Assembly (NCBI GenBank): GCA_034664845.1
Contig: JAXDGW010000010.1
Span: 58,936 to 122,935, forward strand
DNA: 64,000 nt
Source: Thermoanaerobaculia bacterium
GTDB taxonomy: Bacteria; Acidobacteriota; Thermoanaerobaculia; Gp7-AA8
Reading direction: 5' to 3'
How positions within the stretch are numbered: position 1 is the first letter of the stretch; every line of letters begins with the position of its first letter. The notes beneath the pieces were generated by a model that saw nothing but the letters and a program-made list of their open reading frames with translations, searched no databases and was not told where the DNA came from. Position numbers and translations under genes: made by a program. Shown in pieces: positions 5,356 through 62,703 of this stretch.

Positions 5356-6872
5356 GCACGCACCACTGCGGACGGCCCTTCAGCCGTTTTACGTCCGACA
5401 CGGCTCAAGACCTGTTCGAGCAACTTGGTAGCAACGACGACCGGCAGGAAGTGATAGACAACGAAGTAGACGAAGTAGAACGTCGACGCGCGGAACGTGT
5501 AGTACGCCCAGATGCTGATGAAAAGGTAGAGCAGCGTCGGCCAGAAATAGGACGAGTGCCTTACATACCAGCGGTGCAGAAGGGCAAGACACATGGCCAG
5601 TGCCACCCCGCGCAGCACGAGCTCAATCCAATCGAGTCCGACTGCGGCCTGCGACATGACTCCGAACATGTACCCAACGCCCGCTCCGGTCTGCCCAATG
5701 GCGTCGATGTACCACGACGATGGATCGATCTTTTCGAATGGCAGAAACTGGCTGGGGATGGGAAAGTAGAAATCGCTGACGTACACCTGCCACGGAATCG
5801 AAGTGATGTCGCCCGATTCGCGCCGTTTCTTGATGTCATAGGCGGTCGTGAAGAGTCCCTGGAATTCGTTAGCGGCGGTCAGGATGTGCTGCGCCTGTTC
5901 TTTCCTCATGTCACCCGAGCGTGTGTTTCGAATGGCGCCCGCCACCATGAACGCGGCAAGCAGCAGAGAGCCGGACACCACGAGCGTCCGAAAACTGACG
6001 CGCTTCACGAGGCGGTGGTAGAGCACTCCGGCGCTGATGAGCAGGAGCACGACCTTCCCGCGCGAGCCGAGACGGATGGCGCTGATCACCACTTCGGAGC
6101 CCAGCCACATGACCAGCGCATAACGGCACCACCGCTTCCGCCAATGAGAAAGCAACAGCACGATGACGCCTAGTTGCACGACAAACAGCGCCGATAGACT
6201 GTTGTGACTGATCTGCTGCATCAGGTACGGCATGTCGCGGCCACTGTGCGCCGCAGACATAGGATCGGCATAACTGTAGTCCTCAGGGTCGTAGTCATAA
6301 ACGATCCTCAGCGCGATCTTGAAGATATAGAGCGCAATGAACATGACGGCGACAGCCGCCTGTGTGGCAGGACTCGGCAGCGCGAATACCGTCGTCTTCA
6401 CCGCCTTACGTCCGCGCATGACCAGATACGACACCGCGAACGAAACGGCATAGACGACGTAGCGCCAGCCGAACATCCCGAGCTCGGCCGCATTGAACGA
6501 ATACGCGTGCATGCGGCCATCGACGAATTGGTCCCACTCCCCTCTCATCATGAGGAAGCCAACCATCGGGAGCGTTCCGTACACGGTGATGGCGAGCATG
6601 CACAGTGTTCCGGCTTCGAATACCGGAGGTGAGCCGTCGCGGGCCCACATGACCATCATGTAAACCGAAGACGTTACGACAATCGCCAGCATGGGAGCGG
6701 CGAGCAACCGGTCGTCCCCTTTCAGCAGAAGAAGGGCCGCCACGCTGGCGATGGCAACGAACAGGCAGAACGCGATGGCCTGCCGGCGGCGTCGTCGAGC
6801 GGCGTCTCGGACGCTGCGGACGAATATGCGGCGCCGGGGAGGTAGTGACGCTGCGGCCAGCACGTCACTCAT
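5352..6872 (-). CDS. Polytopic membrane protein, Wzy-like O-antigen/EPS polymerase candidate
   Basis: 506 aa with more than 10 predicted TM helices and large loops. It is the only multi-TM non-flippase protein in the operon. The ATGA overlap with the GT2 gene upstream supports this start. Confidence 0.5.
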   Translation of the reverse strand: MSDVLAAASLPPRRRIFVRSVRDAARRRRRQAIAFCLFVAIASVAALLLLKGDDRLLAAPMLAIVVTSSVYMMVMWARDGSPPVFEAGTLCMLAITVYGTLPMVGFLMMRGEWDQFVDGRMHAYSFNAAELGMFGWRYVVYAVSFAVSYLVMRGRKAVKTTVFALPSPATQAAVAVMFIALYIFKIALRIVYDYDPEDYSYADPMSAAHSGRDMPYLMQQISHNSLSALFVVQLGVIVLLLSHWRKRWCRYALVMWLGSEVVISAIRLGSRGKVVLLLISAGVLYHRLVKRVSFRTLVVSGSLLLAAFMVAGAIRNTRSGDMRKEQAQHILTAANEFQGLFTTAYDIKKRRESGDITSIPWQVYVSDFYFPIPSQFLPFEKIDPSSWYIDAIGQTGAGVGYMFGVMSQAAVGLDWIELVLRGVALAMCLALLHRWYVRHSSYFWPTLLYLFISIWAYYTFRASTFYFVYFVVYHFLPVVVATKLLEQVLSRVGRKTAEGPSAVVRA

Positions 6873-7957
6873 TTCGCATCCTCTTTCAAATGTTTCTCGT
6901 CCGCTTCACGAAAGAGCGTAGCCCGTCCCGAGAACGCGCGCGCGCTCGTTGCCGCGAAACGCAGCGCTCCCTGAGCGAACGCCGGCAAGTCGTAGCGCGC
7001 CGCCGTCAGATACCACCGGCTCATCGTTGCCGGTGAGGCGTTCGCGGCCATCGTGGCGATCCGCGCGATCAGCGATGCCGACTGAGCGCGGATCTCGCGG
7101 AGTTGTGCGGCCTCGGGCCAGATCTTCACGAACCGTTCATAGGCGCTGTCGATCAAGCGTACGAGCGGTTCGAGCGTCTCCAGAGCCGGGTAGAGCCGGG
7201 GATTCGTACCCCTCGTGAGCACGTCGATCCCGGCGGCGGCAGCAGGCTCGGCACCGATCGTCGCAGCGACATTGCTCATGAACACTTCGGCCACCCGTCG
7301 GATCGCCTCCATCGAATAACGCGAGGAGATCGACGTGCTTCTGCCGCGGTTCGCAACGAGTGTCTCATGCACACTGCGGAGAGGATGCTCGCGGCTGAGC
7401 CGCGACCAGAGCTCGAAATCCTGATTCGTGCGGAAGGTCTCGTCATACCCGCCGAAACGATCGAGCACGAGGTCGCGGCGGAAAACGACCGCCGAATGGA
7501 CAAACGGGTTTTCGTACATCAACTGCCAGCGGATGCCGAGGTGTGTTTCGCACCTTCGGAGACGCGCTCGGCGGCGGCCAAGCTCGTCGATGGAGACAGC
7601 CTGCGAGCCGACCACGGCGACGTCGCCGTTGCGCTCGAGAAACGCCACCTGGCGTGCCAGACGGTCGCGAAACGAGACGTCGTCGGCATCCTGCCGGGCG
7701 ATTAGAGCGCCGCGCGCTTCGCGGAGACCTAGATTGAGCGAGCGCGTGAGGCCGATGTTTTCCGGGTTGCGAATGATCCGGATTCGCTTGTCGTCATACG
7801 ACGCAAGAATGGCCGGCGTCGCGTCCCTCGAAGCGTCGTCGATGATGAGAAACTCGAAATCGCGGTAGGTCTGGCCGAGGATCGAGTCGATCGCCTCGCG
7901 AAGATACCCCTCGCCGTCGTAGACGCACAGCAGCACGGTAACCAGCGGAGCGGTCAC
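6869..7957 (-). CDS. Glycosyltransferase family 2
   Basis: The C-terminal 362 aa of ORF 6869..8671 carry the GT2 signature VTVLLCVYDGEGYLREAIDSILGQTYRDFEFLIIDDASRD...QDADD. The GTG start at 7955-7957 overlaps the AsnB TGA. Confidence 0.7.
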   Translation of the reverse strand: MTAPLVTVLLCVYDGEGYLREAIDSILGQTYRDFEFLIIDDASRDATPAILASYDDKRIRIIRNPENIGLTRSLNLGLREARGALIARQDADDVSFRDRLARQVAFLERNGDVAVVGSQAVSIDELGRRRARLRRCETHLGIRWQLMYENPFVHSAVVFRRDLVLDRFGGYDETFRTNQDFELWSRLSREHPLRSVHETLVANRGRSTSISSRYSMEAIRRVAEVFMSNVAATIGAEPAAAAGIDVLTRGTNPRLYPALETLEPLVRLIDSAYERFVKIWPEAAQLREIRAQSASLIARIATMAANASPATMSRWYLTAARYDLPAFAQGALRFAATSARAFSGRATLFREADEKHLKEDAK

Positions 7958-9777
7958 CACGCGACCTCGTGCCTCTCCAGCCAGATGCCGAGGGACATCA
8001 TGATCCAGGCGCGGTAGTTGTGCTCCTCGAGCACGTCGTCGACGGGACCGCGCAGCAATTCGCGCAGTTTCGATTTCGGCCCGGTAACCCGCCGCGTGAG
8101 CGCCGCGACGTCCGGCTTCTCCATCCATGCGCCGATCGGGGAGCCGAAGCCCTGCTTGCCCCGGCCGTGCAGTTCCTCCGGCCAGTAGCGCTCGCACGCC
8201 TCGCGCAACACGAGCTTGCCGCGGTTCTCGTCGACCTTCAGCGCGGCAGGCAACGACAATGCAAACTCGGCGAGGTCGCGGTCGAGAAACGGCGCGCGCG
8301 TCTCGAGCCCGTGCGCCATCGCCGCACGATCGACCTTCACGAGGATGTCGCCCGGCAGGTAGTGCATGAGGTCGAAGAAAAGTCCCCGATCGATGCCCTT
8401 CACGTCGTCGCCAGGCCGGTACAAATCGCCGGGAGTCCACGACGGAACGGATCGTCCCCACAGCTTCTGCCGTTGGCGCGGTGATGTCGTGACGTGGCTT
8501 TGAATGTCGCCGAGCCAGGGATCCGGCCAACGGGCGGCGTAGCCAAGAGCGATCGACTTCCGCGCAAGCGCGATGTTGCGGTCGCGCAGCAGCTTGCTCG
8601 CGATACGAGCGACGATCCAGAGCGCATAGGAATGCGTCACCTGCCCTGCCCGCACGAGCATGGAGTGCCACGGATACCCGCCGAACAATTCGTCGCCGCC
8701 ATCGCCCGAAAGAACGACCTTCACGTGCCGGCTCGCAAACTCGGATACGAGAAACGTCGGAATGTGTGACGTGTCGGCAAACGGCTCGTCGTAGACATCG
8801 CTCATCCGCTCGATCAGTCCGGCCACATCGAGCGTTTCCAGGTACAGCTCATAGTGTTCGGTTCGATACCGCTCGGCAACCGCGCGCGCATACGGAAGCT
8901 CATTGATGAGCGAACCGAAGCCGACGGAAAACGTCTTCACGGGGATCGCGGAGTGCTCCTGCATCAGCGCCACGATCGTGCTCGAGTCGAGGCCGCCGCT
9001 GAGAAACGCGCCGACCGGCACATCGGCGATCATCTGGCGCTTGACCGCGCGGCCGGCGAGATGCCGCAATTCCTCGGCCGCCTCGTCCATGCCGATTTGC
9101 CGTTCGCCGAGCCGCGGCCGCCAGTACGGCTCGACAGTCACGTTGCCTTCGCGCCAATCGAGGCAGTGCGCCGGAGGCAGTGTCGCGACGTCGCGATAGA
9201 CCGTACGGTCCGGCGGGACGTAGCCGAAGGCGAGGAATGCGTCGACGGAAACCAGATCGAGAGAATGGCCGACTAGTTTCGACGCCAGAATCGCCCGAAT
9301 TTCCGAGGCGATGACGAGCGCGCCGTCGCTCATCCGCGCGTAATAGAGCGGCTTTTCGCCGAAGATGTCGCGGGCCGCAAAGAGTGTTCGGTTGTGCGTG
9401 TCCCACAGTGCGAACGCGAACATGCCGCGGAATCGCTGGAGACAATCGCGGCCCCACTCGTGATACGCGGCGATGATGACCTCAGTATCCGAATGGGTTC
9501 GGAACGGGTGACCTTTCCCTTCGAGCTCGTCACGCAGCTCGAGAAAATTGTAGAGCTCTCCGTTGTAGGTGATCCAGTACCGCTCCGATGCATCACTCAT
9601 CGGTTGTGCGCCCGAGCTCAGATCGATGATGCTCAGACGGACATGGCCCAATGCGCAGTCACGCACACTGGCCGTGCCGCGGGCGTCAGGTCCGCGATGC
9701 TCGAGCGTATCGATCATCACGGAAACGAGCTCGAGCCGGTTCGCTACCGGGCTGATGATCGCGGCAATTCCGCACAT
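7954..9777 (-). CDS. asnB: Asparagine synthetase (glutamine-hydrolysing) family amidotransferase (AsnB/WbpS-like)
   Basis: MCGIAAII...LEHRGPDARG...GHVRLSIIDLSSGAQPM, an N-terminal Ntn GATase domain, and an asparagine-synthase adenylation domain with an SGGLDSS PP-loop. 607 aa. Confidence 0.85.
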   Translation of the reverse strand: MCGIAAIISPVANRLELVSVMIDTLEHRGPDARGTASVRDCALGHVRLSIIDLSSGAQPMSDASERYWITYNGELYNFLELRDELEGKGHPFRTHSDTEVIIAAYHEWGRDCLQRFRGMFAFALWDTHNRTLFAARDIFGEKPLYYARMSDGALVIASEIRAILASKLVGHSLDLVSVDAFLAFGYVPPDRTVYRDVATLPPAHCLDWREGNVTVEPYWRPRLGERQIGMDEAAEELRHLAGRAVKRQMIADVPVGAFLSGGLDSSTIVALMQEHSAIPVKTFSVGFGSLINELPYARAVAERYRTEHYELYLETLDVAGLIERMSDVYDEPFADTSHIPTFLVSEFASRHVKVVLSGDGGDELFGGYPWHSMLVRAGQVTHSYALWIVARIASKLLRDRNIALARKSIALGYAARWPDPWLGDIQSHVTTSPRQRQKLWGRSVPSWTPGDLYRPGDDVKGIDRGLFFDLMHYLPGDILVKVDRAAMAHGLETRAPFLDRDLAEFALSLPAALKVDENRGKLVLREACERYWPEELHGRGKQGFGSPIGAWMEKPDVAALTRRVTGPKSKLRELLRGPVDDVLEEHNYRAWIMMSLGIWLERHEVAW

Positions 9778-50787: not shown

Positions 50788-50872
50788 AATCAAAACCATG
50801 CACCACAGAGGCGCAGAGAGCACAGAGAAATGATTAAACTCTGTGACCTCTGCGCCTCTGTGGTTCAAATCA

Positions 50873-52102: not shown

Positions 52103-52290
52103 AGCGAGGTCGCGAGGTTTGCGGGGTCGCGCAGTGGTTGCTGGGTTGCTGAGTTGGCGAGTTGGCGTGTATGGGCGATCTTCGTCGCGCCGAGCTTATA
52201 GATGCCGACCGAGCAACCAAGCAACCTGGCAACTCAGCAACCCAAACCGCGACCCCGAGACCGCGAGCCCCCGCGACCGCATTTGACAGC
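52103..52290. repeat. ~190-bp imperfect palindromic element built from tandem octamers, in the tyrS/hisZ divergent intergenic region
   Basis: Left arm gcgaggtc|gcgaggtt|tgcggggt|cgcgcagt|ggttgctg|ggttgctg|agttggcg|agttggcg. Right arm caaccaag|caacctgg|caactcag|caacccaa|accgcgac|cccgagac|cgcgagcc|cccgcgac. The arms are reverse-complementary (for example ggggtcgcg/cgcgacccc and gttgctgagttg/caactcagcaac). Confidence 0.6.
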
Positions 52291-52467: not shown

Positions 52468-53349
52468 ATGGCCACGAAATCGAGATACCCGACAGGTGTA
52501 CGGCCGCTCTTGGCCGAGGAGACCGCGCGCCGCCGGCGGATGGAATCGCGCTTCGTCGATGCATTCACCGGCGCCGGCTTTGCCGAAGTCGTGCTTCCGA
52601 TCATCGATTATGTCGAGCCGTACGCAGCGCTGGTCGAGCCTGCGACGGCAAAGCAGAGCTATCGATTCGTCGACCGCGAAGGCGACCTGATCGCCATCCG
52701 CTCCGACTTCACGCCGATGCTGGCTCGCGCGCTCGCGCCTGCGATCACGCCCGAGGATCTGCCGATGCGGCTCTTCTACCGCGGCGATGTCATCCGCGTC
52801 GAAGCCTCCCGCCTCGGCGCCAACCGGGAGTTGTTCCAGATCGGCGCGGAGATCGTCGGCGACGACTCCATCGACGCCGATGTAGCGATGCTGCGGCTGG
52901 CGGCCGATCTCGTGCGCGCTCCCGGCGACGAGCCGACGGTCGTCTACAACGACGTCTCGATCGCTGCCGCGTTGATCGCGCAGTCGGCGCCTGTTCGTGA
53001 AGCGCTGGCGGCGAAGCGGATGACCGCGGGAGTGCCTGCTGCCTTACAAACAATCGTCGCGAAACTGATCTCCGGCGACGCGACGTTGAGCGATGTTGCG
53101 CCGTTCGCGCCTGAGGCGGCGGCGAGGTTGTCGGCGATCGAGGAAGCGGTCGCCGGCGACAGCATCTTCACGTTGCACCTCGACGACATCGAAGACAGCG
53201 GCTACTACACTGGCCTTCGCTTTCGCGTCTACGCCGGCGGCGCGCGCACGAAGGTTGCGCAGGGCGGGCGGTACGACAACCTCTACGAACGCTTCGGCCA
53301 GCGCGCCGCGGCGATCGGATTCACCTTCACGATCGACGACCTGGATTGA
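52468..53349 (+). CDS. hisZ: ATP phosphoribosyltransferase regulatory subunit
   Basis: HisRS-like catalytic core without an anticodon-binding domain. 293 aa. Directly precedes a short-form hisG. Confidence 0.85.
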   Translation: MATKSRYPTGVRPLLAEETARRRRMESRFVDAFTGAGFAEVVLPIIDYVEPYAALVEPATAKQSYRFVDREGDLIAIRSDFTPMLARALAPAITPEDLPMRLFYRGDVIRVEASRLGANRELFQIGAEIVGDDSIDADVAMLRLAADLVRAPGDEPTVVYNDVSIAAALIAQSAPVREALAAKRMTAGVPAALQTIVAKLISGDATLSDVAPFAPEAAARLSAIEEAVAGDSIFTLHLDDIEDSGYYTGLRFRVYAGGARTKVAQGGRYDNLYERFGQRAAAIGFTFTIDDLD

Positions 53350-53354
53350 ACGAT

Positions 53355-53963
53355 ATGCGCATTGCGATACCGAAAGGACGGCTGCAGGAGAAGGCGCTCG
53401 CCGTCTTCGCCAACGCCGGCTACGACGTGCCTTCCGAGGCGGATCTGAAGACGCGGAAACTCGTGTTCGAGCGCGGCGGCATCGAATGGATCTTCGTCAA
53501 AGATGGTGACGTACCGGTCTACGTCGAGCATGGCGCCGCCGACGCAGGCATCGCCGGACTCGATCAGATCCTCGAGCACGAATGCACCGCCTATCAGCCG
53601 GTCGAGTTTCCGTTCGGCCACTGCAGGATGATGCTGATCGCCGCGCCGGGCGCGCCTCCGCTGACGAAAGTGGCCACGAAGTATCCGCGCATCACGCGGC
53701 AGTTCCTCGACGCGCGCGGCGTTCACGCGGAGATCGTCCCGCTGAGCGGCTCCGTCGAGCTCGCGGCGGTGCTGAACCTCACGTCGCACGTCGTCGATCT
53801 CGTCGAGACCGGCGAGACCGTGCGCATTCACAAACTGGAGATGCAGGAAGTGGTCGCGGAGATTTCGCCGCGGCTGATCGTCGGAAAGAACTTCTATCGC
53901 ACGGAACCGAAGATGGTGAGAGAACTGATCAACAGAATTGAGGAGAAAGTCCTGTCATCCTGA
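53355..53963 (+). CDS. hisG: ATP phosphoribosyltransferase, short form
   Basis: MRIAIPKGRLQEKAL...ADAGIAGLDQILEH. About 200 aa with no C-terminal regulatory domain. The ATG at 53355 is preferred over the TTG at 53346. Confidence 0.85.
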   Translation: MRIAIPKGRLQEKALAVFANAGYDVPSEADLKTRKLVFERGGIEWIFVKDGDVPVYVEHGAADAGIAGLDQILEHECTAYQPVEFPFGHCRMMLIAAPGAPPLTKVATKYPRITRQFLDARGVHAEIVPLSGSVELAAVLNLTSHVVDLVETGETVRIHKLEMQEVVAEISPRLIVGKNFYRTEPKMVRELINRIEEKVLSS

Positions 53964-53991
53964 GGCGCCTTGGCGGCTCAGGATGACATCA
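53951..53991. repeat. Short palindromic element with TGTCATCCTGAG / CTCAGGATGACA inverted termini at the hisG-hisD junction
   Basis: cctgtcatcctgag-gcgccttggcgg-ctcaggatgacatc. The left arm encodes the last codons and stop of hisG. The same termini bound the 163-bp element at 59570..59732. Confidence 0.65.
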
Positions 53992-53999
53992 AAATCCAA

Positions 54000-55193
54000 A
54001 TGCGAGTCTTTAACGCAAACACCCCCGAATCCGACGCCGCCTTGCGCGCGATTCTCGATCGCCGCAGCGCCACGAACGAGAACGCGTTGCGCGTGGCCGA
54101 CGAGATGATCGCCGGCGTCCGCGCTCGCGGCGATGGGTATGTGGCCGAGGTCATCGCGAAGTTTGACGGCGTGACGATTGGGCCGGACGCGATCCGGACT
54201 ACGCCGCGCGAGGTCACGATTTCGACCGAGATGCAGGCAGCCATCGATCTCGCCATCGACCGCGTCGAAGCGTTCCACCGGCCGCAGCTTCCGCAGTCGT
54301 ACACGCTTGGCAATCTCGAGCATCGCGTGCGGCCGATCCGACGCGTCGGCGTCTATGTGCCGGGCGGACGCGCCGTTTACCTCTCGACGCTGATCATGAC
54401 CGCGGTCCCGGCGCGCATTGCGGGAGTCGACGAGATCGTCTGCATCACAACTTCTTCTGCTGCAGATCGCGACGAGCTTCATTACGTTTGCAACCGCCTC
54501 GGCGTCCGCGAAATCTATCGCTGCGGCGGCGCGGCAGGCGTCGCCGCGGCGGCGATCGGAACGCAATCTCTCGCTCGCGTCGACAAGATCGTCGGGCCGG
54601 GCAACGCCTACGTCACCGCCGCGAAAATGCGCCTCATCGGCGAGGTGGGAATCGACATGACCGCCGGCCCGACCGAGCTGGTGGTCATCGCCGACGACAC
54701 TGCCGACGCACGATTCGTCGTCGCCGATTTGCTCGCGCAAGCGGAGCACGGCGCCGATTCGGAAGTCATCCTTCTGACGACTTCGCAAACGCTGGCCGCG
54801 CAAATGCCGGAGCGCGCGCTCACATTCGTCGTCGCCTCGCTCGACGACGCGATCGTGATCGCCGACCGCATCGCGCCGGAGCATCTCTCCATTCACACCC
54901 GCGATGCGGCAGCGATCGGAGCGCGTGTCCAAAACTGCGGCGCCATCTTCTGCGGTCCGTTCGCGCCGCCCGCGGCCGGCGATTACGTCGTCGGGACGAA
55001 TCACGTGCTCCCCACCGCCGGCAGCGCGCGTTTCTTCTCCCCCCTCGGCGTCTACGATTTCGTCAAGCGCGCCAACGTCATCTCCCTCTCCGCCGAAGAG
55101 CTTGCGGAAATCAGCGATGCCGGCGAACGGATCGCCACGTTCGAAGGACTGCCCGCTCACGCCGCATCGATGGCCATCAGGAGGACCGCATGA
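54000..55193 (+). CDS. hisD: Histidinol dehydrogenase
   Basis: Full HisD with Zn/NAD motifs. The ATG at 54000 (MRVFNANTPES...) places ARGD at the position seen in E. coli HisD. The ORF track starts at the TTG at 53970. Confidence 0.9.
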   Translation: MRVFNANTPESDAALRAILDRRSATNENALRVADEMIAGVRARGDGYVAEVIAKFDGVTIGPDAIRTTPREVTISTEMQAAIDLAIDRVEAFHRPQLPQSYTLGNLEHRVRPIRRVGVYVPGGRAVYLSTLIMTAVPARIAGVDEIVCITTSSAADRDELHYVCNRLGVREIYRCGGAAGVAAAAIGTQSLARVDKIVGPGNAYVTAAKMRLIGEVGIDMTAGPTELVVIADDTADARFVVADLLAQAEHGADSEVILLTTSQTLAAQMPERALTFVVASLDDAIVIADRIAPEHLSIHTRDAAAIGARVQNCGAIFCGPFAPPAAGDYVVGTNHVLPTAGSARFFSPLGVYDFVKRANVISLSAEELAEISDAGERIATFEGLPAHAASMAIRRTA

Positions 55194-56230
55194 GTCGCGC
55201 TGTCGTCGCCGCCATGACCGCCTACACGCTGGAGTTGCGTGAGGCCGAGATCAAGCTGAATCAGAACGAGAGTCCGAGCGATTTTCCGCAGGAGCTCAAG
55301 GAGAGAGTTCTCGCCGAGATGGCGCGGCGCTCGTGGAACATCTATCCCGACTTCGAGTCGATGATGCTTCGCGGCGCGCTGGCGAAGGCGTACGGCTACG
55401 AAGCCGCGAACATTCTCGTCGGCAACGGCTCGAACGAGCTGCTTGCCGCGACGATCCCGACGTTTGTCGGCCCCGGAACGCCGGTCGTTTTTCCGAAGCC
55501 GACGTTTGCGCTGTACGAAAAACTCGTCGCCGTCGCCGGCGGCATCGCGCTGCCCGTCGCGGTCGATCCCTCGACGGGACTGCTGCCGCTCGACGAGATG
55601 CTCCGCGCCATCGCCCGCTGCGACGACGCTGTCGTCATCGTCTGTTCGCCGAACAATCCAACGGGCGGCGTGCTGCCGGACGGCGGGATCGACGCGCTCC
55701 TCGCCACCGGCGCGACCGTGCTTTTCGATCGCGCGTACGGCGATTTTGCCGAGGATGTGATGCCGGAGCTGAACGACCGGCTGGTGACGTTCTCGACGTT
55801 CTCGAAAGCGTGGGGAATGGCCGGATTGCGCGTCGGCTGGCTCGCGTCGACGGCATCGACCTGCCGCGAGATCCGCAAAGTGAAACTCCCCTACTCGCTG
55901 AACATCGTCAGCGAATACGCCGCCGCGACGGCGCTCGAGAACGGCGAGATCCGTACGCGCAACGTCGCCGCCACGATCGCCGAGCGCGCGCGGATGTTCG
56001 CGGCGATGCAGCAAATCGACGGCGTGACGCCGTTCCCATCGCGCTCGAACTTCATCGCGTTCACGACACAGCGCGACGCGAAGGAAGTCTTCAACGCGCT
56101 GCACGCCAGCGGCATCCTTATCCGCGACATCAGCGCCGCGGTCCCGAACGCGCTGCGCGTTTCGGTCGGGACGCCGGCACACAACGACGCATTCCTCACC
56201 GCTCTCGATCAAACAATGAAGCAGGAGTAA
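55190..56230 (+). CDS. hisC: Histidinol-phosphate aminotransferase
   Basis: Class II aminotransferase with PLP-Lys region FSTFSKAWGMAGLRVGW. The ATG at 55190 overlaps the hisD TGA (ATGA). The ORF track embeds it in a longer artefactual ORF, 54488..56230. Confidence 0.9.
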   Translation: MSRAVVAAMTAYTLELREAEIKLNQNESPSDFPQELKERVLAEMARRSWNIYPDFESMMLRGALAKAYGYEAANILVGNGSNELLAATIPTFVGPGTPVVFPKPTFALYEKLVAVAGGIALPVAVDPSTGLLPLDEMLRAIARCDDAVVIVCSPNNPTGGVLPDGGIDALLATGATVLFDRAYGDFAEDVMPELNDRLVTFSTFSKAWGMAGLRVGWLASTASTCREIRKVKLPYSLNIVSEYAAATALENGEIRTRNVAATIAERARMFAAMQQIDGVTPFPSRSNFIAFTTQRDAKEVFNALHASGILIRDISAAVPNALRVSVGTPAHNDAFLTALDQTMKQE

Positions 56231-56233
56231 CCG

Positions 56234-56824
56234 ATGCGACAAGCAACCATTACCCGCACCACCAAAGAAACCAACGTCGCGGTCACGCTCGATCTGGACG
56301 GCGACGGCACGCATTCGAAGATCGACACTCCCGTCGGTTTTCTGTCGCACATGCTCGACGTCATCGCGCGCCACGGCCGCGTCGATCTCGACATCGTCTC
56401 CACCGGCGACACGCACATTGACTATCACCACACGGTCGAAGACACCGCCCTCGTCCTCGGCGAAGCCTTCGCCCAGGCCCTCGGCGACAAGCGCGGCATC
56501 CGCCGTTTCGGCCACGCCTACGTTCCGCTGGACGAAGCGCTGGCGCGCGTCGTCGTCGACTTCGCGGGCCGGCCTTTTCTCGTCTTCGACGTCCCTTTCG
56601 ACCGCGAGATGCTCCTCATCCACAAGGATTTTCCCTTCGCACTCGTCGAGGAGTTCTTCAAGTCGTTCGCGAACAAATGCGCCTGCAACATCCACGTCGA
56701 TCTCATTCGCGGCCGCAACGGCCATCACGCCGCCGAGGCGATTTTCAAGGCGTTCGCGATCGCGCTGCGCGAGGCGAAGAGCGTGGTTGGGAGCGAGATT
56801 CCGAGCACGAAGGGTGTGATTTAA
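56234..56824 (+). CDS. hisB: Imidazoleglycerol-phosphate dehydratase
   Basis: TKETNVAVTLDLDG...HHTVEDTALVLG...HHAAEAIFKA. Monofunctional, 196 aa. Confidence 0.9.
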   Translation: MRQATITRTTKETNVAVTLDLDGDGTHSKIDTPVGFLSHMLDVIARHGRVDLDIVSTGDTHIDYHHTVEDTALVLGEAFAQALGDKRGIRRFGHAYVPLDEALARVVVDFAGRPFLVFDVPFDREMLLIHKDFPFALVEEFFKSFANKCACNIHVDLIRGRNGHHAAEAIFKAFAIALREAKSVVGSEIPSTKGVI

Positions 56825-56927
56825 CGAAAGGGGTCAGGTCGAAACCGAAACTGACGACGGCCATCGATGAACCACTCGCTCTACTCAAGCTCGTCGTCAG
56901 TTTCGGTTTCGACCTGACCCCTTTCGC
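56825..56927. repeat. 103-bp palindromic element (35-bp perfect arms) between hisB and hisH
   Basis: cgaaaggggtcaggtcgaaaccgaaactgacgacg - 33-nt loop - cgtcgtcagtttcggtttcgacctgacccctttcg. It starts 1 nt after the hisB stop, and hisH starts 7 nt after it ends. Confidence 0.7.
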
Positions 56928-56933
56928 TAACCC

Positions 56934-57530
56934 ATGATCACGACTCTCATCGATTCACCCGTCGCGAACGTCGCCAACATCGCTCGTGCGCTGCGCACTG
57001 TCGGCGCGGAGCTGGTTGTCACGCGCGATCCGGACGCGATTGCAGCGGCGGAGAAACTTGTCCTGCCGGGCGTCGGTTCCTTTATCGCCGCGATGCGATG
57101 GCTCGAAGAGAATCGCATCGATGCAGCGATCAGCACGGCGGTCAAACGCGGCGCGACGCTGCTCGGCGTTTGCGTCGGACATCAGCTCTTGTTCGATCTC
57201 TCGCACGAAATGGGGAGCACGCGCGGCCTCGGCTTGGTGCGCGGCGAAGTACACAAATACGAGGGCTCGCTTCCGGTACCGCAGATCGGATGGAATCGCG
57301 TGAAGGCCGCCGAGGGCTCGGCACTCTTCGACGGCGTCGAGAATGGCGTCTTCTACTTCGTCAACTCCTACGCGGCTTCGAACGCGCCCGACGAGATTGC
57401 GCGCGCTGATTACGGTAGGCCGTTCACCGCGGCGGTTCAACACGATCGCGTGTTCGGCGTGCAGTTTCATCCCGAAAAATCGTCGGCGGCAGGTCTGCGC
57501 GTCTTGAGGAACTTCGTGACATGGACGTAA
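56934..57530 (+). CDS. hisH: Imidazole glycerol phosphate synthase, glutamine amidotransferase subunit
   Basis: Class I GATase: GVCVGHQLL (nucleophile Cys) and FGVQFHPEKS. Confidence 0.9.
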   Translation: MITTLIDSPVANVANIARALRTVGAELVVTRDPDAIAAAEKLVLPGVGSFIAAMRWLEENRIDAAISTAVKRGATLLGVCVGHQLLFDLSHEMGSTRGLGLVRGEVHKYEGSLPVPQIGWNRVKAAEGSALFDGVENGVFYFVNSYAASNAPDEIARADYGRPFTAAVQHDRVFGVQFHPEKSSAAGLRVLRNFVTWT

Positions 57531-58987
57531 TCCCTTCGCTCGACCTCCTCGGCGGGCAAGTCGTCCGTCTGCTGCACGGCGATTTCGCGAACGTGACGGC
57601 GTACGGCGATCCGGAGAAGGTTCTCGATTCACTCGAGGTGCCACGCGGATCGCGGCTGCACATCGTCGACCTCGAAGCGTCGCGCAGCGGCAGACCGGTC
57701 GAACTGGAGGCCGTGCGGCGATTAGCGAAACGCGATCTGCGCGTTCAGGCCGGCGGCGGAATTCGCTCGCTCGCCGATGCGAAGGCGTGGATCGACGCCG
57801 GCGCCGAGAAGGTCGTGATCGGAACCGTCGCCGCAGACGCGCCCGAGGTCTTGCGTGAGATCGTCGCGGCGCTCGGCGCCGATCGCGTCATCGCCGCCGT
57901 CGATGTGCGCGACGGCGTCGTACGCGTGCACGGCTGGGAGCGTGACGCGGGCGCGACGCTCGCCGAGGTTCTCGAGCGCGTCGAATCCCTCGGCATCAGA
58001 GAAGCGCTCATCACCGACATCAACAAAGACGGCGCGATGCGTGGGCCGTCGTTCGCGCTTTACCGCTCGCTGCGCACGAAACTGCGCATCATCGCCAGCG
58101 GCGGCGTCTCCACCCTCGGCGATGTCGTCTCGCTGAGCCGCATCGGCAGCGTCGGCGCATGCGTCATCGGGCGCGCGCTGCTCGACGGCCGCGTGCAACT
58201 CGCCGAGGCGCGGGCGCGTGTGGCGACACCGAACGCGATTCCGGAGCGCGTCATCCCCTGCCTCGACGTGCGCGACGGCCGCGTGGTCAAGGGCATCAAC
58301 TTCGTCGATATCCGCGACGCCGGCGATCCGGTCGAATGCGCCGTGCGATACGAAGCCGAGGGCGCCGACGAGATGGTGATTCTCGACATCTCCGCGACCG
58401 ACGCGAATCGCACGACGGCTCTCGACACGGTGCATCGCGTCTCCGAATCGTTGTTCATCCCGCTCACCGTCGGTGGCGGCGTGCGGACGATCGAAGATTT
58501 TCGCGCGTTGCTCCGCGCCGGCGCGGACCGCGTGGCCATCAACACCGCCGCGCTTCGCAATCCGCGGCTCATCGCCGATTGCGCCGCCGAGTTTGGCGTG
58601 CAGGCCGTCGTGCTTTCGTGCGATGCCAAACGGATCGGCGATCACTACGAGGCGATGGTGCGCAGCGGCAAGGAATCGTCGAGCGTCGATGCCGTGGTGT
58701 GGTGCCGGCGCGCCGAGGAGCTGGGCACGGGCGAGATCCTGCTCACGTCGGTCGATCGCGATGGAACGAACGCGGGATACGACATCGAGCTGCTGCGCGC
58801 CGTCACCAGCGTCGTTCGCATCAGCGTCATCGCCTCGGGTGGCGCCGGCTCTCTCGAGCACTTCCGCGACGCCATCGAAGCCGGCGGCGCGCGCGCAGTG
58901 CTGGCGGCGTCGCTGTTTCATGACCGGCGGCTGTCGATTGGCGATGTGAAGCGCTTTCTGGCAAATGAAGGGATACCCGTACGATGA
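57521..58987 (+). CDS. hisA-hisF: In-frame fusion: ProFAR isomerase (HisA) + imidazole glycerol phosphate synthase cyclase subunit (HisF)
   Basis: Single 488-aa ORF. Residues 1 to about 233 are HisA ([17 protein letters not shown]...[20 protein letters not shown]). HisF follows directly (...[38 protein letters not shown]...). Across the junction ...gtg gcg aca ccg aac gcg att ccg gag cgc gtc atc ccc tgc ctc gac gtg... there is no stop codon and no ATG/GTG/TTG. Confidence 0.75.
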
Positions 58988-59568
58988 CTGATTTGAAATT
59001 CGACGCATCAGGCCTCATCCCCGCAGTCATTCAAGACGCGCGAACCGGCGAAGTTCTGACGCTCGCGTACATGAATCAGGCTTCGCTCGACCGCACGCGC
59101 GAGAGCGGTGAGACGTGGCTCTGGAGCCGCTCGCGCAAGGAGCTCTGGCACAAAGGCGCGACGTCAGGCAATACGCAGCGCGTCGTCGCCATCAGTGAAG
59201 ACTGCGACGGCGACGCGCTCGTCGTCAGCGTCATTCCGAACGGACCGGCGTGTCACACCGGCGCGCGATCGTGCTTCGCCGGCACGCCGCCGCGCACGCT
59301 CGATCGGCTGATGAACGTTCTGCGTGATCGGCGCGAAAAGCGTCCCGAGGGCTCGTACAGCGCGAAGCTGTTCAGCGGAGGACGAGGCAGGATTGCGAAA
59401 AAAATCGGCGAGGAGGCCACCGAGGTCGTCATCGCCGCGCTGAGCGAAACGCGCGAGCGCATGGTCAGCGAGATCGCCGATCTGGTCTTTCACGTCACCG
59501 TGCTGATGGCGGATGAAGGGATCGACTGGAGCGAGATTGAGGGGGAGCTGGCGGGCAGAGAAAGGTAA
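58984..59568 (+). CDS. hisIE: Bifunctional phosphoribosyl-AMP cyclohydrolase / phosphoribosyl-ATP pyrophosphatase
   Basis: HisI domain (LAYMNQASL...[12 protein letters not shown]...CDGDAL) followed by the HisE MazG-like domain. ATGA overlap with the hisAF stop. Confidence 0.9.
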
Positions 59569-59569
59569 A

Positions 59570-59732
59570 CCTGTCATCCTGAATCGCCGAAGGACACGAA
59601 GTGCCGGAGGACGATGAAGGACCCCCCGCGCATGTGCACGGTCGGGTGGTGGAACTGGTGACAACGCAATGCGCAGGGGGTCCTTCGACCGTCCTCCGGC
59701 ACTTCGTGTCCTGCGGCGGCTCAGGATGACAG
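59570..59732. repeat. 163-bp near-perfect palindromic element with TGTCATCCTGA terminal inverted repeats, downstream of hisIE
   Basis: Left arm cctgtcatcctgaatcgccgaaggacacgaagtgccggaggacgatgaaggaccccc. The right arm is its reverse complement (gggggtccttcgaccgtcctccggcacttcgtgtcctgcggcggctcaggatgacag). The central loop contains a further gcgcatg/catgcgc-type stem. It lies between the convergent hisIE and M23 peptidase genes. Confidence 0.7.
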
Positions 59733-61121: not shown

Positions 61122-61658
61122 ATGAACGTCAAAAAACGGCTGCTCGACGGTCCTCGAATGAATCGCGCCATCCGGCGCATGGCCATTGAAATCCTCGAGA
61201 AAAACCGCGGGACCGATGACCTCATCATCGTCGGCATCCGCAGCCGAGGAGTTCCGATCGCCGAGAGGATGGCGAAGGAGATCGAGGAGATGGAAGGGCA
61301 TCCGGTCAGCTCCGGCATCCTCGACATCACCCTTTACCGCGACGACCTGACGACGATCGCGCCGCAGCCGGTCGTCAAGCCGACCAAGCTTCCCGAGCCG
61401 ATCGACGACAAGATCGTCGTCCTCGTCGACGACGTTCTCTACACCGGCCGCACGGTTCGCGCCGCGCTCGATGCGCTGATCGACTTCGGCCGTCCCAAGG
61501 CAGTCATGCTCGCCGTCCTCATCGATCGCGGCCACCGCGAGCTCCCCATCCACGCCGACGTGATCGGCAAGACAGTCCCCACCGATGCGCACGAAGTGAT
61601 CAAAGTGAAGCTGGTGGAGACGGATGGCGAGGACGAGGTTTTGATCATGGAGAAGTGA
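61122..61658 (+). CDS. pyrR: Bifunctional pyrimidine operon regulator / uracil phosphoribosyltransferase
   Basis: [16 protein letters not shown]...[22 protein letters not shown] (PRPP-binding motif). 178 aa. Upstream of pyrB. Confidence 0.9.
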
Positions 61659-61669
61659 TGTTTGCGGTT

Positions 61670-61730
61670 GCGAGGTCTCGGGGTTGCGCGGTAGCGCAGT
61701 AACACCGCGAGACCGCGAGACCGCGAGACC
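61670..61730. repeat. Tandem-octamer palindromic element (CGCGAGAC x3 and inverted partner) between pyrR and pyrB
   Basis: gcgaggtctcggggttgcgcggtagcgcagtaacaccgcgagaccgcgagaccgcgagacc. It may double as the pyr attenuator/terminator hairpin, with no U-tract. It belongs to the same family as the 49425..49478 and 52103..52290 elements. Confidence 0.55.
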
Positions 61731-61752
61731 GCGAGACCCCGCCACCGCCAAC

Positions 61753-62703
61753 ATGCGCGCCTCCACATCCTCGCTCCGCTCGAAAGACCTTCTCGGCATC
61801 GAGCAACTCCTTCCCGAAGAGATCGAGTTGATTCTCGATACCGCAGAGGGATTCAAGGAAGTGAGCGAGCGGCCGGTGAAGAAAGTGCCGGCGTTGCGCG
61901 GGCAACTCATCATCAATCTCTTCATGGAAGCGTCGACGCGGACGCGGGTCTCGTTCGAGATCGCGGAGAAACGCCTCTCCGCCGACACGCTCAACTTCAC
62001 CGCCTCCGGCTCCTCGGTCGAAAAAGGCGAAACGCTCATCGACACCGCCGAGAACCTCGTGGCGATGCATCCGGAGATGATCGTCATCCGGCATAAGTAT
62101 CCGGGCGCGCCGAAGATGCTGGCGGACCGGCTGCCGAACGTCTCGATCATCAACGCCGGCGACGGCGCGCACGAGCATCCGACGCAGGCTCTCCTCGACG
62201 CCTTCACCATCCGCGAGCGTCTCGGGCGGCTGGCCGGCGTCAACGTCTCGATCATCGGCGACATCGCTCACTCGCGCGTGGTGCGATCGAACATCCATCT
62301 GCTGACGAAGATGAAGGCCAACGTCACCGTGGCCGCGCCGCCGACGCTGCTGCCGGCGGAGATCGGAAAGATGGGCGTGCGCGTCGTTCACTCGCTCGAC
62401 GAAGCGGTGTCCGGGGCGGACGTCATCATGATGTTGCGCATCCAGCTCGAACGGCAGGGGAAGCTGTCGTTTCCGTCGCTGCGCGAGTACTACAACACGT
62501 TCGGCCTGACGCCGGAGCGGCTGAAGCGCGCCAACAGCGAGGCCATCATCATGCATCCCGGTCCGATGAACCGCGGCGTGGAGATCGCCAGCGATGTGGC
62601 GGATGATCCTCGGCGCTCAGTCATCCTGGAGCAGGTGACGAATGGTGTGGCGGTGCGGATGGCGGTGTTGTATCTGCTGGGGGGAGCGCATGGCAGTGAG
62701 TGA
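61753..62703 (+). CDS. pyrB: Aspartate carbamoyltransferase catalytic subunit
   Basis: STRTR (carbamoyl-phosphate binding), HPTQ and HPGP motifs. The ATG at 61753 ([19 protein letters not shown]) is the likely start within ORF 61684..62703. Confidence 0.9.

Follow-up and report, generated by a model that had tools for sequence, protein, structure and literature searches.

The stretch of DNA analyzed here (the window; 64,000 nucleotides, positions 58,936 to 122,935 of contig JAXDGW010000010.1 in assembly GCA_034664845.1) comes from a Thermoanaerobaculia bacterium and carries a complete and compact histidine biosynthesis (his) operon of the order hisZ-G-D-C-B-H-AF-IE (52468-59568; Table 1). The gene hisAF of this operon is a real natural in-frame fusion that joins a complete HisA and a complete HisF barrel within a single open reading frame (ORF), as had been claimed in a first-pass annotation made from the sequence alone. 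Both the ORF list and direct reading of the sequence place at 57521 its earliest possible start past the upstream in-frame stop. Pfam finds two His_biosynth domains in the product (E 1.1e-134), and the equivalog models of NCBIfam assign each half separately, HisA (TIGR00007) to residues 3-229 with 316.2 bits (cutoff 228.95) and HisF (TIGR00735) to residues 241-488 with 402.6 bits (cutoff 294.55). No PriA-type assignment was obtained for the HisA half, where the hisA-trpF model TIGR01919 reaches 187 against a cutoff of 306, and the paralog model WbuZ scores 348 on the HisF half, below the score of the HisF model itself. At the junction the protein reads ...LAEARARV234-ATPNAI-P241ERVIPCLDV, in agreement with the sequence given in the first-pass annotation.

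Table 1. Positions of the his operon genes and of the elements within and around hisAF (window coordinates).
Feature	Position	Strand	Description
hisZ-like gene	52468-53349	+	first gene of the his operon
hisG (short form)	53346-53963	+	his operon
hisD	53970-55193	+	his operon
hisC	55190-56230	+	his operon
hisB	56234-56824	+	his operon
hisH	56934-57530	+	glutaminase subunit of imidazole glycerol phosphate (IGP) synthase; TIGR01855, 205 bits; Pfam GATase
Shine-Dalgarno-like GAGGAA	57506-57511	+	for hisAF; within the hisH 3' end
hisAF	57521-58987	+	HisA-HisF fusion in one ORF; ATG start, 488 aa, TGA stop at 58985-58987
HisA barrel	57521-58222	+	residues 1-234; isomerase of ProFAR, i.e., of N'-(5'-phosphoribosylformimino)-5-aminoimidazole-4-carboxamide ribonucleotide
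Shine-Dalgarno-like GAGG	58205-58208	+	upstream of the V234 GTG; at the same time coding sequence for the conserved E-A in helix α8
In-frame GTG (V234)	58220-58222	+	at the junction; possible, non-conserved internal start for stand-alone HisF
Inter-barrel linker TPNAIP	58226-58243	+	residues 236-241; DSSP on the AlphaFold2 model
HisF barrel	58244-58984	+	residues 242-488; IGP synthase cyclase
hisIE	58984-59568	+	bifunctional phosphoribosyl-AMP cyclohydrolase and phosphoribosyl-ATP pyrophosphohydrolase, itself a fusion; ATG overlaps the hisAF stop

The first-pass annotation had proposed a search of related genomes for the same fusion, and it is present throughout the close relatives within reach of our genome scan, which took one genome per species and recovered 35 loci. 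All 29 loci from Thermoanaerobaculia/Acidobacteriota, among them the closed chromosomes OY970380.1 and OY970284.1, have the two genes joined in a single frame without interruption, down to identities of approximately 60% in the HisA part and 75% in the HisF part (the ranges across the loci are 60-88% and 74-94%, respectively), and the gene order D-C-B-H-AF-IE is maintained in these relatives. The fusion holds across an entire group of soil Acidobacteria. hisA and hisF are separate in all 6 outgroup loci (L028-L033, from Rhodobacteraceae, Bacteroidetes, Omnitrophica, two Gemmatimonadales, and Chitinophagales), and in both Gemmatimonadales loci hisB sits between hisA and hisF. A search of 5.8 billion proteins yielded at least 120 metagenomic clusters from JGI, ENA, NCBI, and Logan (formed at 90% identity) of approximately 488 aa with 100% query cover and 74-94% identity. 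The named members of these clusters belong to Thermoanaerobaculia/Acidobacteria, and one of them had been automatically named "Multifunctional fusion protein".

AlphaFold2 run on the alignment of fused sequences predicts two full (βα)8 barrels with a mean predicted local distance difference test score (pLDDT) of 91.4 and a predicted template modeling score (pTM) of 0.86. According to DSSP on this model, the linker spans from helix α8 of HisA (residues 227-235) to strand β1 of HisF (residues 242-251), and the blocks around the junction retain mean pLDDT values of 85 (231-240) and 90 (241-250), so that the model suggests a defined arrangement of the barrels relative to each other and not beads on a string. 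The linker is as well conserved as the domains that it connects (mean conservation 0.87, compared to 0.82 for HisA and 0.88 for HisF), and this short segment is constrained at the level of the protein. The gene has probably been maintained by purifying selection since its origin. Structure searches with hisAF found no PDB chain or structure that covers both barrels.

The same junction could harbor a start codon for HisF. While the first-pass annotation had described the ORF as free of internal starts, in-frame GTG codons are found at V225 (58193-58195) and at V234, and a Shine-Dalgarno-like GAGG precedes the latter by 11 nt, just as far away as the corresponding motif is from the genuine start of hisAF. 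Internal initiation in this genome is thus possible as judged from these motifs, and one might propose that the ORF is continuous but that HisF is also made substantially as a separate protein from the GTG of V234. A survey of 30 fused sequences (the window plus the 29 loci of its relatives) lends this proposal some support, since 21 of them have the GTG and in another three (L018, L020, and L022) an ATG or GTG lies two codons downstream. We nevertheless consider it unlikely: in 7 fused relatives (L010, L021, L024, L025, L026, L034, and L035) the linker lacks a start codon, and GTT, GTC, ATC, CTC, or GCG takes the place of the V234 codon without a start nearby, GTG is the commonest valine codon of this GC-rich genome, the GAGG doubles as codons for the conserved Glu-Ala of helix α8, and the linker is constrained at the level of the protein. 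A conserved internal start was rejected on the same count, and because of these non-start codons in 7 of 30 sequences the GTG of V234 is not a conserved feature of the fusion.

Neither half of the protein has lost any of its catalytic residues. Alignment to solved structures equates D8, D128, and D170 of the HisA half with D7, D129, and D176 of Salmonella HisA and places its phosphate-binding glycine motifs GGG (78-80) and SGG (193-195) on those of 5g5i/4gj1. In the HisF half, the catalytic residues D249 and D368 correspond to D11 and D130 of the Thermotoga maritima enzyme, the ammonia gate R243/E284/R337/E405 corresponds to R5/E46/K99/E167, and D336 matches the HisH contact D98. The catalytic, gate, and HisH-contact residues as well as the phosphate motifs are invariant across 51 aligned fused homologs. 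This leaves very little probability for a reading in which one barrel has degenerated into a non-catalytic scaffold while its activity is supplied by a gene elsewhere. The faster evolution of the HisA half, with its lower range of identities across loci, would fit such a scaffold, but every catalytic aspartate and phosphate-binding motif is kept in both halves, both exceed their equivalog cutoffs, and no second hisA or hisF is found in the 64-kb window or within approximately 6 kb to either side of the locus in the 29 relatives. The only change in the gate, K99 to R337 (58529-58531), is conservative and invariant in the clade. We rejected it as an adaptation to the fusion because it is also seen in HisF without an A-F junction (8 of 89 such representatives, compared to 7 of 25 fused ones), which places it within the variation of the family.

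An artefact of sequencing or assembly, by which a lost stop codon or a frameshift would falsely join neighboring genes, has practically no probability left: adjacent or overlapping hisA and hisF are the usual state, as in outgroups L028-L033, and a single indel could imitate a fusion, but the same ORF with the same conserved junction recurs in 29 independent species-level assemblies with closed chromosomes among them, and at least 120 metagenomic clusters carry it too.

Fusions of HisA to HisF are not limited to this lineage. An exhaustive HMMER scan of 1.84 billion representatives at 50% identity uncovered 21 further clusters containing full-length A-F with 37-59% identity to hisAF, of which P0121 (59% identity) groups with the window lineage in a tree of HisF domains. 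Some of these clusters combine the pair with additional his domains, as H-A-F (P0127 and P0139), H-A-F-IE (P0135, 933 aa), or A-F-IE (P0143). Searching with a profile of the divergent fusions brought up at least 120 more clusters of approximately 490 aa, and the few that bear names are attributed to Candidatus Peregrinibacteria, Magasanikbacteria, or the "Patescibacteria group", i.e., to the candidate phyla radiation (CPR)/Patescibacteria. With P0135 as the query, a third A-F group came to light that comprises at least 54 clusters (513-560 aa), along with 19 H-A-F and 4 H-A-F-IE proteins. The genomic context was checked for two of the divergent fusions and consists of compact his operons of the order G-D-C-NB-H-AF-IE and G-D-C-NB-HAF-IE, respectively. 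The A-F fusion is therefore a recurrent architecture that is numerically common in metagenomes and confined to uncultured lineages, and the first-pass annotation overstates the matter in calling it at least very rare, since sequence databases hold it from a number of unrelated lineages, CPR/Patescibacteria among them, and also within H-A-F and H-A-F-IE proteins. This wider spread makes the fusion less of a surprise and at the same time more valuable as comparative, Rosetta-stone evidence for a possible assembly of HisH, HisA, and HisF.

Several side observations were made on these multidomain forms. The products of the H-A-F type (P0468, P0127, P0406, and others) and of the H-A-F-IE type (P0135 and P0403-P0405) are 700-1030 aa long. 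The order of the two barrels appears to be reversed in F-A-IE (P0150) and F-A (P0177), while P0506, P0507, and P0512 seem to join HisH to HisA without HisF, and P0154, P0190, P0497, and P0500 to have the order F-H. P0468 is encoded in the G-D-C-NB-HAF-IE operon, with the HAF gene at 6001-8181 of loci L037/L038. A small gene of the Trp_repressor family with a helix-turn-helix (HTH) domain lies directly upstream of the his operon both at L036 with its CPR-type A-F gene (1089-1376) and at L037/L038 with the H-A-F gene (1329-1625), and is a candidate for the regulator of this operon there.

The junctions of the divergent A-F fusions are unlike each other in sequence and vary from 0 to 72 aa in length, and in the tree of HisF domains the fused forms are scattered among unfused HisF, H-F, and F-IE proteins, with the window lineage (the window sequence, P0121, and P0136) as one separate origin. 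Judging from these unrelated linkers and the scattered placement in the tree, the A-F fusion arose repeatedly and independently. HisA and HisF are paralogs thought to stem from a tandem duplication (PMC1963479), which could make the fused state look like a relic of that event, but this idea can be dismissed with near certainty on account of linker diversity and the HisF-domain tree: the fusion is limited to terminal clades with an unrelated linker in each, its members nest among unfused proteins, hisA and hisF are separate in the outgroups and in every classical model organism, and the equivalog models recognize each half as a typical modern HisA or HisF. Since the fusions are recent and secondary, our finding is silent on the ancient duplication itself.

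Gene fusions are a known phenomenon in this pathway, and reviews of the topic describe them for hisD, hisN, hisB, hisH, and hisF as well as for hisI and hisE, with hisA absent (PMC1963479, PMC10138114, PMC7284861, and PMC8305728), while a survey of archaeal fusions includes only rare "HisA/F"-HisIE fusions (PMC11237513). We found no description of an A-F fusion in a full-text search of the open-access literature, and it is not among the known types of his fusions (IE, NB, HF, and IED). As far as the searchable literature shows, A-F is an undescribed combination within the known phenomenon of fusions between adjacent pathway genes. Like hisIE, hisNB, hisHF/HIS7, and HIS4 (hisIED), it joins neighboring genes of the his operon and thereby steps of the pathway in a multifunctional protein, and as with those fusions (PMC1963479 and PMC10138114) this happened repeatedly in different lineages, but the combination of partners is new and the partners are paralogous barrels. 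In yeast His7 (1jvn and 1ox4-6), too, the N-terminus of the HisF barrel is covalently joined to another protein. This partner is the glutaminase in His7, whereas it is HisA in the window, where HisH is a separate protein. Of His7, the HisAF model matches the cyclase half alone, over 254 aligned residues.

Another natural chain of two (βα)8 barrels that serves consecutive steps of one amino acid pathway is TrpC-TrpF of E. coli (IGPS:PRAI, i.e., indole-3-glycerol phosphate synthase and phosphoribosylanthranilate isomerase; 1pii), an established natural fusion (PMC7681013). Neither homology to 1pii nor a shared arrangement of the two barrels was found for HisAF. The sugar isomerase of TrpC-TrpF is mechanistically homologous to HisA. 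Structure searches also returned the engineered HisA/HisF chimeras 2w6r, 3og3, and 4j9j, in which the same two families are joined covalently. We take these proteins to be artificial single barrels assembled from half-barrels in the Sterner and Hocker laboratories for the study of barrel evolution; hisAF, unlike them, combines two complete barrels in a natural tandem.

In a (βα)8 barrel, both termini are situated on the N-terminal face, which in HisF is also where HisH docks (1gpw and 1jvn). A tether of only 6 residues between HisA and HisF thus raises a steric question. As an indirect test, the natural H-A-F protein P0468 (726 aa) was modeled by AlphaFold from a multiple sequence alignment of 56 sequences with a pLDDT of 92.4 and a pTM of 0.91, and Foldseek aligns yeast His7 to this model with a TM-score of 0.74-0.76 (TMt, normalised to the approximately 532 residues of His7). 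The H and F parts have to match together for such a value, so the model combines canonical H:F docking with a HisA attached to the N-terminus of HisF. Canonical docking of HisH hence looks compatible, at the level of predicted structures, with the fusion of HisA to this end of the cyclase.

It is highly probable, in our assessment, that hisAF encodes one bifunctional two-barrel polypeptide that acts as ProFAR isomerase and IGP synthase cyclase and works with a separate HisH. The N-terminal HisA barrel would convert ProFAR to N'-(5'-phosphoribulosylformimino)-5-aminoimidazole-4-carboxamide ribonucleotide (PRFAR) in step 4 of histidine biosynthesis, and the C-terminal HisF barrel would turn PRFAR into IGP and 5-aminoimidazole-4-carboxamide ribonucleotide (AICAR) in step 5, using ammonia from HisH docked on the N-terminal face of HisF. 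Most likely, the two frames merged in an ancestor of this Thermoanaerobaculia lineage through a minor alteration where the hisA stop and the hisF start overlapped or abutted, and the setting would have been an operon whose neighboring genes already overlapped. The likely benefit is production of two consecutive enzymes at a fixed 1:1 ratio and their co-localization around the labile PRFAR, as a HisH:HisAF complex. We infer both activities as well as the mechanism of the fusion, its selective advantage, and any channelling. Some points weigh against this interpretation: the GTG of V234 with its Shine-Dalgarno-like motif could yield some free HisF in this genome, the inference on docking comes from an H-A-F protein of another lineage and from a program, AlphaFold2, that has seen His7, and the organisms are uncultured and represented by metagenome-assembled genomes.

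Channelling of PRFAR or allosteric coupling within HisAF is possible. A more specific version of this idea, which we regard as doubtful, is that the conserved linker of 6 residues is rigid and fixes HisA beside the HisH:HisF interface, so that the three domains form an ordered unit in which PRFAR is handed directly from HisA to HisF or the occupancy of HisA contributes to the allosteric activation of HisH; the A-F, H-A-F, and H-A-F-IE proteins would then indicate, in the Rosetta-stone sense, that HisA and IGP synthase also associate in ordinary bacteria where they are not fused. If true, this would match the "his metabolon" long hypothesized for the hisBHAF core. A physical association of the hisBHAF core enzymes has been proposed (PMC10138114) and gains Rosetta-stone support from the fusion, and hisAF offers an experimental system for studying PRFAR channelling and the docking of HisH when the N-terminus of HisF is occupied. 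A natural HisA-HisF enzyme further enlarges the catalogue of his fusions, in which the H-A-F-IE proteins cover five reactions. In textbooks, the evolution of TIM barrels by duplication is exemplified by HisA and HisF, and HisF-HisH serves as a model of ammonia tunnelling and of allostery.

The genes of the operon are tightly packed, with overlaps between hisZ and hisG, hisD and hisC, hisH and hisAF, as well as hisAF and hisIE. The 3' end of hisH overlaps the start of hisAF by 10 nt (57521-57530), which bears out the overlap between these genes described in the first-pass annotation, is kept in the relatives, and implies translational coupling; the overlap of hisAF with hisIE comprises 4 nt (ATGA). 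The hisZ-like gene at the head of the operon encodes a short product (293 aa) that scores 170 bits and thus well below the HisZ equivalog cutoff of 272, and the gene overlaps the short-form hisG as expected of a HisZ/HisG(S) pair.

The spacer between hisB and hisH (56821-56930) contains a near-perfect hairpin with a stem of approximately 36 bp (dG -72.7 kcal/mol, z -14), the exact 30-nt arms of which lie at 56830-56859 and 56892-56921. The hairpin is single-copy in the window and matched no Rfam family; scanned against Rfam, the operon produced nothing beyond spurious matches below threshold. Most close relatives have an equally strong hairpin of unrelated sequence in their hisB-hisH spacer, while relatives without a spacer have no hairpin. 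Either this spacer is an insertion hot spot for palindromes resembling repetitive extragenic palindromic sequences (REP) or miniature inverted-repeat transposable elements (MITE), or any strong hairpin inside the operon is selected for. Additional long intergenic inverted repeats are located at 50799-50867, 52142-52244, and, just past hisIE, 59571-59732. The latter has 57-nt arms with 84% complementarity and termini (CTGTCATCCTGA...) that resemble the hisB-hisH element of L012, and the arms at 52142-52244 resemble the element of L003; these resemblances suggest families of mobile palindromic elements that may be common to these genomes. A similar CCTGTCATCCTGAGG motif is found at the hisG/hisD junction (53951-53965). 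Finally, a perfect tandem repeat of ACCGCGAG (4.4 copies at 61704-61748, also scored with a period of 16 nt) falls within the predicted N-terminus of the pyrB ORF (61684-62703) near pyrR (61122-61658), and the start of pyrB may therefore lie further downstream.

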